DNA from: Rhodothermales bacterium
GTDB taxonomy: Bacteria; Bacteroidota; Rhodothermia; Rhodothermales; Bin80
DNA length: 64,000 nt
Assembly (NCBI GenBank): GCA_965218495.1
Contig: OZ244626.1
Span: forward strand, 2,352,196-2,416,195
Direction of reading: 5' to 3'
The notes beneath the pieces are model-generated. The model was not told the origin of the DNA. It saw nothing but the letters and a program-made list of their open reading frames with translations, and made no database searches. The translations under genes and the position numbers were made by a program. Below, in pieces: positions 16,363 to 64,000 of this stretch; the stretch's first letter is position 1; every line of letters starts with the position of its first letter.

Positions 16363-16851
16363 CTATTGCGCCCTACTGCGAGTCTGGCGCCACTTTCGTC
16401 GGCGCGCTTCCTTCTGCTTCAGAACCTGACCTATGCGGTGCACATTGGTGGCCACCACTACCAGTGCCAGCGTCCTGTCGAAGCCGGCCTTGCCGTGGGT
16501 GCGCACTAGTGACATGCCCCGGTGATGGAGGTTATTGATCGCCGACTCTACGGCCGGGTGTTGACGCCGGGCTGCCACGAAGTCCAGATGGGTCTCCCGT
16601 TCGCGGTCCGCTTTACGGTGCCGCCCCTTCCGGGGCATCACGTTCAGGTCCAACAACTTGTCAAGCTGCTCGCGATTCTCTGGCGTGTAAAACCCCTTGT
16701 CCATACTGCATGATGCCAGCGCCGGATAGCGCCGCTTCGCCTCTGCAAGGAACGGCACGATCATGTCCTGGTCACCGCCTTCGTGTTGCACGTAGTGGCG
16801 CAGAATGAATTGATGCTGATCCTCCAGCACGCAGACCGGTACCCCAGCACG
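16363..16851 (-). CDS. IS transposase, 3' exon (downstream of the group II intron)
   Basis: This is the in-frame part of track ORF 16363-16968, from RAGVPVCVLEDQHQFILRHYVQHEGGDQD... to the stop. It joins in frame to exon 1 at ...KGKAGVMAEL|RAGVPVCVLEDQ. Confidence 0.7.
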   Translation of the reverse strand, partial: RAGVPVCVLEDQHQFILRHYVQHEGGDQDMIVPFLAEAKRRYPALASCSMDKGFYTPENREQLDKLLDLNVMPRKGRHRKADRERETHLDFVAARRQHPAVESAINNLHHRGMSLVRTHGKAGFDRTLALVVVATNVHRIGQVLKQKEARRRKWRQTRSRAQ

Positions 16852-18768
16852 GTAGGGACCCGAGTCTCCCCGAGCCCCCCGTACAGATCCGGACGTGCGC
16901 GCTAACGCATCCGGCTCCTCCCTCGGGTTGCGCTGGCGCGCGTGACGGTAAACCGTGCATCCGGCCATGGGTGTCGAATTGCAAGCTTCGGCCAGTAAGT
17001 CGCAGTGAGCATGTCCATATCTTTCCGCGACGTACGATCCCTCTGAGATCGCCGCCGCAGGACGCGCATCCAGATCCAGTGGAGCCGCCTACAACAGCGC
17101 TGGAGGTAGGGGAAACTCGTCGGTACGGCATAGTAGTTCAGTCAACCATTAAGCACCTGCCCCAACCATTGGCCCGTTTCACGCACCTTTCGGTGCCTTC
17201 GCCGGATCAATTGCTCCTTCACCCGCTTCAGAAAGCGGACCATCCGTTTGGCAATCGGTTTACGACCCAAGCCAAAGCGTCCTTTTCGAGTTCTACGGCA
17301 ATAATGCGTGAAACCCAAGAAATCGAACGTCTCTGGTCGGCCTTCACCTCGTCTCTTGCGGTCTTCCTCGGCGAGACGCCCAAATGCTAACAGGCGTGTT
17401 TTGCCAGGATGCAAACTCAGCCCAAACTTCTCGAGTCGAGCTTGCAGTTCACGCATGAAACGCGTTGCCTCCCTTCTGTACTGGAAACACACCACGAAAT
17501 CGTCCGCATAGCGGACGATGTATACCTCCCCCTCACACCGACGTGATTGGCGCCACTTCTGAACCCACAGGTCTAGCACGTAATGGAGATAGATGTTGGC
17601 CAGAATCGGGGAGATGACCGCGCCTTGCGGCGTGCCCACTTCGCTGTCCTGCCGTACACCCTCTACCATCACTCCCGCATTCAACCATTTAATGATCAGC
17701 CGTATCACGCGCTTATCCCCGATACGATGCTCCAAGAAGCGGATTAACCACCCCTGGTCTACCGTGTCAAAGAACTTGCGTATGTCGGCGTCCACAGTGT
17801 AGTTGACCTTGCGACGCTCAATCACAAAGGCCAAGGCGTCCAGCGCGTTGTGCGCGCTGCGCTTCGGCCTGAACCCATAACTGAAACCGCGAAACTCCGC
17901 CTCGTAAATCGGCGTCAGGATGCATTTCACCACGGCCATCTGGACGATCTTGTCCTCCAATGCTGCAATGCCGAGCGGTCGTGTACCGCCGTCCGGCTTG
18001 GGTATCTCTACCCGCCTGGACGGGGTCGCCCGATACGCACCGCTATGTACGCGCCGGCAAAGATCTGCCAGACGGACTTCCAGTCCTTCCGCGTACGCCT
18101 TCCACGTCATGCCGTCCACGCCGGGGGCTGCATCGCGCTTAAGCGCGAGGAAAGCCGTCTGGAGTGACTCTACATTGATGTGGTGCAGTAGCGTCGTGAG
18201 ACGTTCCTGTGAGTTTCGCTTCACGAACTCCCGTAACCGCTCAGTCCCCTGGGACACGCGCGCCCATTTCTGCGCATGGTGCGTGTGAGGACCTCGCGGT
18301 TTCCCCTTGGGTGATCCCCTTCGCTCCCGCCACTCCGCCGGAGCGTTCGCTCCTTTGTTCGCAGCGCTCATCGCTCGTATGGGATCATCTGACTTCTTCA
18401 ACTCGTGCATCTCCGGTTACGGCGCAAGCGCCTTTCCTTTGCGGCCCCGCACGACCGCGGGGCGAGTTGAAGACCTCCCAGGTCCCAGCAGGATATGTAC
18501 ATGCGTCCATGGGTCCCGGACACCGTGGGCCTGTCCGCCGTCTCACCATAGCGATGACGAACATGTTGCCTTCGACCGAGCTGAAAGCCTCGGCGACCCA
18601 GATTACATGTTTTTCGGTGCTCAATAACCCTGGCCACACGCACCGCTACCGACGCTTCGCGCCCACCCTCACGGGTGGCCACGCACGGCTCGCGGAGATA
18701 TGTACCTGGTTTCAGTTTCATAACACGGGACTTTCACCCGCTATATCCGGCCAGTTAGCCTGGCGCAC
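16852..18768 (-). mobile_element. Bacterial group II intron (1917 nt) inserted in the IS transposase gene
   Basis: The minus strand starts GTGCGCC at 18768. A domain V-like sequence GAGCCGGATGCGTTAGCGCGCACGTCCGGATC lies near 16885-16920. The intron ends ...GGGTCCCTAC at 16852 and encodes an RT/maturase. Removing it restores the transposase frame. Confidence 0.8.
17142..18410 (-). CDS. Group II intron reverse transcriptase/maturase, ending at a premature TGA (probably a pseudogene)
   Basis: 422-aa ORF with RT motifs (GTPQGAVISPILANIYL, VRYADDFVVCF). It stops at ...GQVLNG*, and the same frame continues LNYYAVPTSFPYL... to a TAG at 16902-16904. The TGA therefore replaces the conserved Trp of the G-W-x-N-Y-Y maturase motif. 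Confidence 0.85.
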   Translation of the reverse strand: MHELKKSDDPIRAMSAANKGANAPAEWRERRGSPKGKPRGPHTHHAQKWARVSQGTERLREFVKRNSQERLTTLLHHINVESLQTAFLALKRDAAPGVDGMTWKAYAEGLEVRLADLCRRVHSGAYRATPSRRVEIPKPDGGTRPLGIAALEDKIVQMAVVKCILTPIYEAEFRGFSYGFRPKRSAHNALDALAFVIERRKVNYTVDADIRKFFDTVDQGWLIRFLEHRIGDKRVIRLIIKWLNAGVMVEGVRQDSEVGTPQGAVISPILANIYLHYVLDLWVQKWRQSRRCEGEVYIVRYADDFVVCFQYRREATRFMRELQARLEKFGLSLHPGKTRLLAFGRLAEEDRKRRGEGRPETFDFLGFTHYCRRTRKGRFGLGRKPIAKRMVRFLKRVKEQLIRRRHRKVRETGQWLGQVLNG

Positions 18769-62385: not shown

Positions 62386-62769
62386 GGTACTTAGATGCGC
62401 TGTTCTCTCTTGTGTTGCTCTCCTCACGCGGGCGGGTTAACCTATTGTTCCTTGGTCTTGTTCTAGAGACCAACGGCCGCTAGCTCTTCTCTGGCTAACC
62501 TAAGGTCCTCCCTGTCGAAGTGGAACGCTAGTGACGGCGGACCCACGCACCTGCCCGGCGCCATCGCGGCAGCTTAGGGAAGACGGGTCTCACCAATGGC
62601 GGTCAATCCAGCACCATTGTCCTAAGCTGCGATGGCCTTTGTTGGCGGAGCGCTGCTGACCGCACCAATGTCTATAGGTGCTCGCTGCAACCAGGCTGCC
62701 GTTGTGACGTTGCCGTGCGCTGGGGTACCCAGTGTACCTGTCGTAGCAGTCGACATTGTCGCAAAACAG

Positions 62770-62798
62770 AAAAGGCCGCAGCAGAGCCACGGCCTTTT
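62770..62798 (-). terminator. Rho-independent terminator-like hairpin downstream of the tRNA gene
   Basis: The minus strand reads AAAAGGCCG-tggctctgctg-CGGCCTTTT followed by CTGTTTTGC. Confidence 0.55.
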
Positions 62799-62804
62799 CC
62801 CGGG

Positions 62805-63188
62805 TAGCGGGGGCAGGATTCGAACCTGCGACCTTCGGGTTATGCGTACCACTACAGCTTTCGCTGCCGGCCTACGACCGTTTGTGGTCTGGACTTTCTC
62901 TTCACCCTCGGCCAAGCCGTTAGGGTGCCTGCCATCAAGTCTCTACACCTTCCCTGGCGTATCGCCAAGGCTTGGCTCGGGATCACCCCGCCAAAGGCTT
63001 CCCCGAATTTGACAGGAGTTCACGCGAGAGTTTCCCCATCGCGCAGCCCATTGCAGACCTCAGGGCCAAAACACGAGAGCCGCGGCGGACCTGCTCCCAC
63101 ATTTGCGACCAGCCGCCATCCTGGCAGATGAGCGCGAACCCTGACCTGCAGCTTGAGCCCGATGAGCTACCTGCTGCTCCACCCCGCG
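62805..63188 (-). tRNA. Initiator tRNA-Met (anticodon CAU) interrupted by a group I intron
   Basis: Exon 1 is 63188-63156, CGCGGGGTGGAGCAGCAGGTAGCTCATCGGGCT. Exon 2 is 62844-62805, CATAACCCGAAGGTCGCAGGTTCGAATCCTGCCCCCGCTA. Joined, they give a full cloverleaf with a C1xU72 mismatch, A11:U24 and three G-C pairs at the anticodon stem end. Confidence 0.85.
62845..63155 (-). ncRNA. Group I intron (IC3-like, 311 nt, no ORF) between U33 and C34 of tRNA-fMet
   Basis: U precedes the 5' splice site and the intron ends in G. The intron contains GUCAAAUUCGG, CCGAGCCAAGC, GAAGGUGUAGAGACU, CCCUAACG, AGAAAGUCC and GCAGCGAAAGCUG. I recognise these from the Azoarcus tRNA-Ile and cyanobacterial tRNA-Leu/fMet introns. 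Confidence 0.8.
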
Positions 63189-63383: not shown

Positions 63384-64000
63384 ATGGCGACCCTTCGTCC
63401 CTTCCGTGCACTGCGACCCGTGCCAGCGGTATGCAGTGCCGTAGCCTCAGTGCCGTACGATGTCGTGAGTATACCTGAGGCACGAGCCTTGGCTGCCGGT
63501 AATCCGCTCAGCTTTCTGCACGTGGTGCGCCCGGAAATTGACCTCCCCGCTGGCACCGACGAGCACGCGTACGCAGTCTACCAAACTGGCGCGGCCAATC
63601 TGCAGCGCTATATCGGCAGCGTCCACAGCATCCGAGACGAAGCACCCACCCTGTACGTGAATCGGCTGGAAGCAGCGGCACATGTGCAAACGGGAATCTT
63701 CGGCTGCGTCAGCGTTACAGAATACCTGGATGGCACCATCAAAAAGCACGAAAACACGCGCCCACCCAAGGTCGCTGACCGCACACGCCACTTCGTCACA
63801 CAACGTGCACATGCCGAGCCCGTGATACTCGCGTATCGCGACAGCGCGGCGGTGGAATCGCAGGTCGAAGCAATTCAGCAGGATTACCCGCTCTACGACT
63901 TTGTTGCCAGCGACGGCGTGCGCCATACTGTCTGGCAGGTATCCGGGTACGAGCCCCTGGTGAATGCTCTTGCTGACGTTCCGTACCTGTACATCGCGGA
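63384..64000 (+). CDS. DUF1015 family protein. The 3' end runs off the window.
   Basis: Absent from the ORF track because it is open at the window edge. Manual translation from the ATG at 63384 gives MATLRPFRALRPVPAVCSAVASVPYDVVSIPEARALAAGNPLSFLHVVRPEIDLP...KKHENTRPPKVADR..., typical of DUF1015. Confidence 0.75.
   Translation, partial: MATLRPFRALRPVPAVCSAVASVPYDVVSIPEARALAAGNPLSFLHVVRPEIDLPAGTDEHAYAVYQTGAANLQRYIGSVHSIRDEAPTLYVNRLEAAAHVQTGIFGCVSVTEYLDGTIKKHENTRPPKVADRTRHFVTQRAHAEPVILAYRDSAAVESQVEAIQQDYPLYDFVASDGVRHTVWQVSGYEPLVNALADVPYLYIA

Follow-up and report, generated by a model that had tools for sequence, protein, structure and literature searches.

A group I intron of the fMet.2Ug class in the initiator tRNA gene of a Rhodothermales bacterium

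The fMet.2Ug intron has been known from cyanobacteria since the 1990s. Its founding example, the tRNA-fMet intron of Synechocystis PCC 6803 (GenBank U10482), is 655 nt long and encodes I-Ssp6803I, a PD-(D/E)XK homing endonuclease of 150 aa. Insertion after U33, with U at position -1 and a terminal omega-G, characterizes fMet.2Ug, which is given as one of the four classical IC3 settings in the survey of Williams (2020; bioRxiv 10.1101/2020.01.27.920355), a work that reports 5,292 tRNA genes with group I introns among about 80,000 bacterial genomes.

We describe here an intron from the window, that is, the whole 64-kb stretch of DNA that was analysed. It shares with the Synechocystis intron the host gene, the insertion site between U33 and C34, the U at -1, the omega-G, the IC3 core and the position of the guide sequence; the host of the former belongs to the Rhodothermales and that of the latter is a cyanobacterium. 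Its core is 84 % identical to that of the seed Tpc1.fMet.2Ug, and the two share exact blocks of up to 17 nt. In the window intron and in that of Synechocystis alike, variation or inserts are located in the P1 loop, and Tpc1.fMet.2Ug also contains a large insert in this loop. However, unlike the Synechocystis intron, that of the window spans only 311 nt, and its P1 hairpin of 103 nt is non-coding and without any remnant of an ORF. The introns of Azoarcus tRNA-Ile(CAU) and of Anabaena/Nostoc tRNA-Leu(UAA) are also similar to it in the GAAA loop of P2, the lack of P5abc and the sequences of J3/4, P7 and J8/7, with identities over the aligned core of 79 % to the Azoarcus type and 87 % to Leu.3Ug. 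They differ in that they interrupt other tRNAs at other positions (after U36 in Azoarcus tRNA-Ile and after U34 in Anabaena/Nostoc tRNA-Leu), and in the Azoarcus-type intron, unlike that of the window, P9 is simpler and P1 is short. The introns from eight metagenome-assembled genomes (MAGs) of Rhodothermales have cores 80–85 % identical to that of the window intron, nearly identical exons, the same DUF1015 neighbour and, in most cases, a terminator directly 3′ of the tRNA.

Exons, junctions and class of the intron

The interrupted gene consists of the following parts:
62805–62844, minus strand: 3′ exon, initiator tRNA positions C34 to A73 (40 nt; CCA not encoded)
62845–63155, minus strand: group I intron of IC3 type, class fMet.2Ug, ORF-less (311 nt; assigned from Rfam RF00028, structure and covariation)
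63156–63188, minus strand: 5′ exon, initiator tRNA positions 1–33 (33 nt; 3′ end GGGCU, with U33 as the -1 nucleotide)

The 5′ exon, CGCGGGGUGGAGCAGCAGGUAGCUCAUCGGGCU (63188–63156), and the 3′ exon, CAUAACCCGAAGGUCGCAGGUUCGAAUCCUGCCCCCGCUA (62844–62805), are separated by 311 nt on the minus strand, and the limits of both tRNA halves given in a first-pass annotation of this DNA were exact to the base. Joining the exons produces a 73-nt sequence that ARAGORN identifies as tRNA-Met(CAU) and that, in agreement with the same annotation, shows the hallmarks of a bacterial initiator: a CAU anticodon, a mismatch at 1:72 (C1xU72), A11:U24 and G29-31:C39-41. The repeated CA at the exon ends permits three junctions, and only that between U33 and C34, which had been proposed from group I rules, leaves a U at -1 and a terminal G in the intron. 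The same insertion site, U at -1 and omega-G were found in the 114 loci of the family with complete exons. Among the matches listed, 112 of these 114 contain A11:U24 and G29-31, and the pair at 1:72 of the intron-bearing initiator tRNA genes is C:U in 59/114, U:U in 18/114, C:C in 16/114 and the E. coli-type C:A in 8/114. A mismatch at 1:72 is kept across the exons of the family, and the identity of its bases varies.

The intron starts with CAAGC and ends with GGUACG. The Rfam group I model, a check suggested in the first-pass annotation, gave a positive result, with a match of RF00028 to positions 63071–62874 (score 61.2 bits, gathering score 50, E = 4.5e-13). As is characteristic of group I introns, U33 at position -1 forms a U.G wobble with a G of the guide in P1, and the omega-G, at 62845, is invariant in the 104 aligned introns (104/104). 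The presence of P2, the absence of a P5abc extension and the similarity of the core to known members place the intron in the IC3 type. Compared with sequences published by Williams (2020) as seeds of the Azoarcus, Leu.3Ug and fMet.2Ug types, the core is 79–87 % identical and has identical blocks of 11–28 nt; the exact IC3 matches that the first-pass annotation had reported are therefore real. The window intron also agrees with the family consensus in 99 of the 100 columns that are conserved in at least 85 % of the family. These results suggest, with a probability of around 0.9, that the locus is an ordinary ORF-less member of the classical fMet.2Ug IC3 group I introns and that it would be spliced. 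Two ORFs called mechanically over the intron (62622–62915, minus strand; 62632–63012, plus strand) lack any Pfam match, and we took them as spurious.

Ribozyme core, guide sequence and P1

The elements of the ribozyme, all on the minus strand, are:
62845–62888, minus strand: three-way junction of P9, P9a and P9b (GAAA loop), with the terminal omega-G at 62845; P9, P9a and P9b covary
62891–62927, minus strand: P8 (62927–62903), J8/7 and the 3′ strand of P7, AGUCC (62895–62891)
62928–62943, minus strand: 5′ strand of P7, G[A]GACU with a bulged A (62943–62938), and 3′ strand of P3, GGCAGG (62933–62928)
62947–62976, minus strand: P6 and P6a; P6a covaries at 8/8 pairs
62977–63016, minus strand: 5′ strand of P3 (63016–63011), J3/4 AAA(U) and P4-P5-P4′; P3 covaries at 6/6 pairs and is 99.2 % paired
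63022–63044, minus strand: P2 hairpin with a GAAA tetraloop; compensatory changes in 9/9 pairs, 91.9 % of cells paired
63045–63050, minus strand: internal guide sequence UGGGCU, directly 5′ of P2, conserved in the family and in the seeds
63051–63153, minus strand: P1 extension, an irregular hairpin of 103 nt in the P1 loop, containing GGCCC (63067–63063)
63154–63159, minus strand: 5′ strand of P1, GGCU/CA (the stroke marks the splice site), formed by exon positions G30–U33 and intron positions +1 and +2, from an unconstrained minimum free energy (MFE) fold

The secondary structure was evaluated on alignment A1, which contains 104 cores from the guide sequence to the omega-G and onto which the IC3 structure was mapped from the window sequence, with a published seed as guide; the modelled helices were P2, P3, P4, P5, P6, P6a, P8, P9, P9a and P9b, together with the P7 pseudoknot. 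The window intron is able to form each of the 64 modelled pairs, although the structure was read from this very sequence, so that its zero mismatches are partly by construction and the independent evidence is the covariation in the family. Over the 104 homologues, 92.0 % of the cells are standard-paired, versus 30–42 % when the partners are slid by 1–3 columns, and 46 of the 64 pairs show compensatory changes on both sides; the observed values were reached by 0/500 shuffles. Every pair covaries in P2, P3, P6a and both P8 helices (5/5 pairs and 96.7 % paired in the outer one). P4 and P7, in the catalytic core, show practically no variation and are 100 % paired, with positions 62943–62938 and 62895–62891 of P7 joined as a pseudoknot. 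Folding against an IC3 template, which had also been suggested as a check, allows all the pairs to form, including P3-P8 and the P7 pseudoknot. We judge the motif CCUAA...GAGGG of P8 to be receptor-like. The only exception among the conserved columns is a G instead of A at 62984, in J5/4, where A is conserved in 97 % of the family; among the 104 aligned introns, this variant appears elsewhere only in those of an Oculatellaceae cyanobacterium (L028) and of a member of the Chitinophagales (L110). In other group I introns, J5/4 contacts the wobble pair of the splice site.

The unconstrained MFE fold pairs GGCUCA (63159–63154) with UGGGCU, closing a single long irregular hairpin with the pairs G.U, G-C, C-G, U.G (at the splice site), C-G and A-U, and the same closure of P1 is found in all eight Rhodothermales relatives. 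In most homologues, the sequence TGGGCTGC, comprising the guide and the start of P2, is situated about 38 nt 5′ of J3/4. Across the family, no variation is seen at G2, G3 and G4 of the (N)GGGCU guide, and C5 is conserved to at least 90 %; the guide occupies the same position in the seeds Tpc1.fMet.2Ug and Sba135.Met.2Ug. The 5′ UG of the guide, with the preceding A, may form P10 by pairing with C34-A35(-U36) of the 3′ exon. The CA repeated at the junctions suggests that the intron CA and then the exon CA would pair in turn with the UG of the guide, as an extension of P1 and later as P10.

The P1 insert, expression context and alternative readings

The P1 hairpins of the eight Rhodothermales relatives are of 38–67 nt and have mutually unrelated sequences, that of the window being the longest (105 nt from splice site to guide). 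The first-pass annotation, which counted ca. 95 nt from the splice site to GGCCC, considered this stretch unusually long; yet the distances from splice site to guide in the family are 6, ca. 43, ca. 62, 85–95, 105 (the window), 108, 140, 294 and ca. 440 nt, an almost continuous series, and the long 5′ region is therefore within the norm of the class. The hairpin is not more stable than shuffled sequence (z = -0.84), and the insert occurs only once in the window and resembles neither the other P1 loops nor the endonuclease gene. A metagenome scan for relatives with a long hairpin returned a single match, L121, with 80 % identity and a P1 loop of ca. 52 nt. The insert is idiosyncratic, with no counterpart in any of the genome or metagenome loci recovered. 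We also considered that it could be a repeated or mobile mini-element, which was rejected because a second copy was found neither in the window nor in other introns.

In introns of ca. 650 nt, the P1 loop holds a homologue of I-Ssp6803I (PDB 2OST, E = 1.9e-62). Each P1 loop was translated in three frames and scored with a profile of 25 endonucleases encoded in introns; 300 dinucleotide shuffles of every loop served as controls, and the positive controls gave clear scores. Seven loci (L001, L018, L052, L079, L063, L003 and L047) scored between 10 and 103 bits, with 0/300 shuffles as high, whereas the loop of the window intron reached only -1.1 bits, a value equalled or exceeded by 40/300 shuffles; the statement in the first-pass annotation that the intron has no homing-endonuclease ORF is thereby supported. 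The seven loci (loops of 76–291 nt) are decaying endonuclease genes in a graded series, an illustration of how endonucleases are gained and lost in turn in a single family of introns. The ORF of ca. 150 aa, of the I-Ssp6803I type, that would mark a mobile intron is not present in the window intron, which is probably immobile since it lacks a homing endonuclease gene.

Introns of ca. 600–695 nt are found in many loci of the family (L004, L008, L013, L015, L017, L021, L029, L031, L033, L037, L043, L051, L057, L062, L065, L070–L074, L076, L077, L082, L085, L089–L092, L096, L106, L110, L112, L113 and L118), and an I-Ssp6803I-type ORF was recovered from most of them. The non-cyanobacterial hosts of tRNA-fMet introns of this size are from Nitrospirota, Omnitrophota, Chloroflexota, Planctomycetota, CPR, Chlamydiota, Bacteroidota and Rhodothermales. 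In many of the long introns, the guide and P2 are part of the coding sequence for the C-terminal end of the endonuclease (...QWAA...), which in some of them extends to P3 and J3/4 (...PVKxGEA...).

Downstream of the tRNA there is one further element:
62763–62800, minus strand: hairpin plus U-run resembling an intrinsic terminator (-27.2 kcal/mol; starts 4 nt after the tRNA)

This terminator-like hairpin was missed by a consensus scanner and found by folding, and most of the eight Rhodothermales relatives have a hairpin with a U-run at the same position. A scan for sigma-70-like promoters yielded none, and the Rhodothermales relatives have upstream regions that do not align. The neighbouring genes in the window are of housekeeping type, coding for IleRS, a purine nucleoside phosphorylase, a protein with an alanine racemase N-terminal domain, a MacB/FtsX-type ABC transporter and a DUF1015 protein.

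From the structure, conservation, covariation and distribution of the intron we infer the following course of transcription, catalysis and P10 formation. A precursor of ca. 384 nt would be transcribed, ending at the intrinsic terminator. In P1, G30–U33 and the first two intron nucleotides would pair with UGGGCU (63050–63045), with the U33.G wobble at the splice site and the non-coding hairpin of 103 nt as a cap. The core (P2, P3-P8, the P7 pseudoknot and the P9 three-way junction) would then bind free guanosine, which would attack after U33. The CA(U) of the 3′ exon would displace the intron CA on the UG of the guide, forming P10, and the terminal G at 62845 would enter the G-site, leading to ligation of the exons into a 73-nt initiator tRNA.

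Two other readings concern the P1 insert. In the layout of the first-pass annotation, GGCCC (63067–63063) acted as the guide, preceded by a leader of ca. 95 nt, and the GGGCU downstream of it was a competitor. GGCCC is indeed complementary to the exon GGGCU, counting a U.G wobble, and the RF00028 alignment also took GGCCC...GGGCU as the first hairpin. However, GGCCC has no counterpart in the homologues, whereas both the family and the published seeds keep (N)GGGCU immediately 5′ of P2; the MFE fold buries GGCCC in the P1 extension, where its partner is GGG(UU), close to the 5′ end of the loop; and its use as guide would leave a J1/2 of 18 nt, which is seen in no relative. This layout is thus extremely improbable. 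Because the conserved guide is that at 63050–63045 and GGCCC is inside the P1 hairpin, both the earlier guide assignment and the first hairpin of the Rfam alignment are wrong, and the supposed competitor is the conserved guide itself. As to its origin, the insert might be a fully decayed I-Ssp6803I-type endonuclease gene instead of a hairpin grown in place, a possibility that we consider less likely than not. The endonuclease ORF of the family is always situated in the P1 loop, seven loci have loops of intermediate size with clear ORF remnants, and one member of the Rhodothermales, L113, has a long intron (ca. 690 nt). Additionally, tblastn showed a weak ungapped likeness of the insert to the C-terminal end of the endonuclease (9/22 residues, E ca. 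0.5), although the QWAA part of this match is forced by the guide and P2 sequences. Also against decay from such a gene are the profile score, no better than that of many shuffles, and the P1 loops of the other Rhodothermales, in which no remnant was found either and whose sequences bear no relation to each other.

The remaining readings concern what the intron does. It is very unlikely that the P1 hairpin is a functional addition, either as a folding or regulatory element gating splicing or as part of a stable excised RNA with a role of its own; if it were, translation initiation would be tied to the folding of an intron, possibly through the only initiator tRNA gene of the cell. The hairpin could also slow folding or allow mispairing, for instance of GGCCC with either GGGCU, and impaired folding due to this long and unique insert is one of the points in favour of a decaying or silent copy, that is, an intron that no longer splices, with an intron-less initiator tRNA gene elsewhere doing the work. 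The change of a near-invariant core nucleotide at 62984, the lack of a promoter match in the sigma-70-like scan and the fact that ARAGORN detects no other tRNA in the 64-kb window would also fit with this. Nevertheless, every helix is intact and 99/100 conserved positions are retained; the exons keep all the initiator identity elements, and the terminator is retained as well. Different species of Rhodothermales share the locus and its neighbour, each with the intron, and none of the 122 loci fetched, as 8-kb pieces, has an intron-less copy nearby. We therefore regard a silent copy as improbable and favour an intron that would still be spliced.

Distribution of the family and annotation of the locus

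Species-representative genomes were scanned with a pattern comprising P9/P9b, the omega-G and the first part of the 3′ exon, which retrieved at least 120 loci, and phylum counts are our own grouping of the record titles. These fMet.2Ug loci span at least about 14 bacterial phyla. Among the matches listed, 34 are from Bacteroidota outside the Rhodothermales (mostly Saprospiraceae and Lewinella), ca. 10 from Rhodothermales (including two records labelled as Bacteroidota that cluster with them), 16 from Cyanobacteria, 14 from Chloroflexota, 13 from Omnitrophota, 7 from Planctomycetota, 6 from Eremiobacterota/Vulcanimicrobiota, 5 from Nitrospirota, 3 each from Armatimonadota and CPR, 2 each from Bdellovibrionota and Pseudomonadota, and 1 each from Desulfobacterota and Chlamydiota, with 3 unclassified. 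The first-pass annotation had considered an intron of this kind notable in this lineage, which does not hold with some ten Rhodothermales, 34 other Bacteroidota and about a dozen further phyla among the at least 120 loci; public genomes of the order already contain the fMet.2Ug intron, and the window is one more instance.

The closest introns among the matches listed are all from Rhodothermales, with identities of 85 % (L050), 84 % (L094) and ca. 80 % (L016, L012, L116, L041, L108 and L097) to that of the window. The DUF1015 neighbour, divergent from the tRNA and upstream of it, is common to the window and these relatives, with 55–64 % amino acid identity. On the basis of these comparisons, the host is Rhodothermales-like and the intron is common to related Rhodothermales at a single syntenic locus. 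In the window, the DUF1015 gene (63384–64000, plus strand) is divergent from the tRNA gene and runs past the end of the sequence. Among the loci fetched, nine, all from Rhodothermales, have DUF1015 and tRNA-fMet in this arrangement, which no other phylum showed.

Annotation of this locus with standard tools is problematic. With default settings, ARAGORN found no tRNA anywhere in the 64-kb window. The intron-aware search suggested in the first-pass annotation did recover the same 311-nt intron, but it placed the junction wrongly and called a tRNA-Leu(CAA). Since the default search misses the gene, the intron-aware search miscalls it and Rfam misassigns P1, such a genome would appear to be devoid of an initiator tRNA. 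The practical value of the locus is therefore in annotation, for which exon-aware tools such as tFind are needed, and its biological weight is small.

The window also contains an apparently complete bacterial group II intron on the minus strand (16847–18734), with these parts:
16847–16919, minus strand: domains D5/D6 (RF00029, 35.5 bits, slightly below the gathering score, which is 40)
17142–18410, minus strand: reverse-transcriptase ORF of 422 aa (RVT_1, E = 1.6e-36)
18511–18734, minus strand: domains D1–D4 (RF02005, 159 bits)
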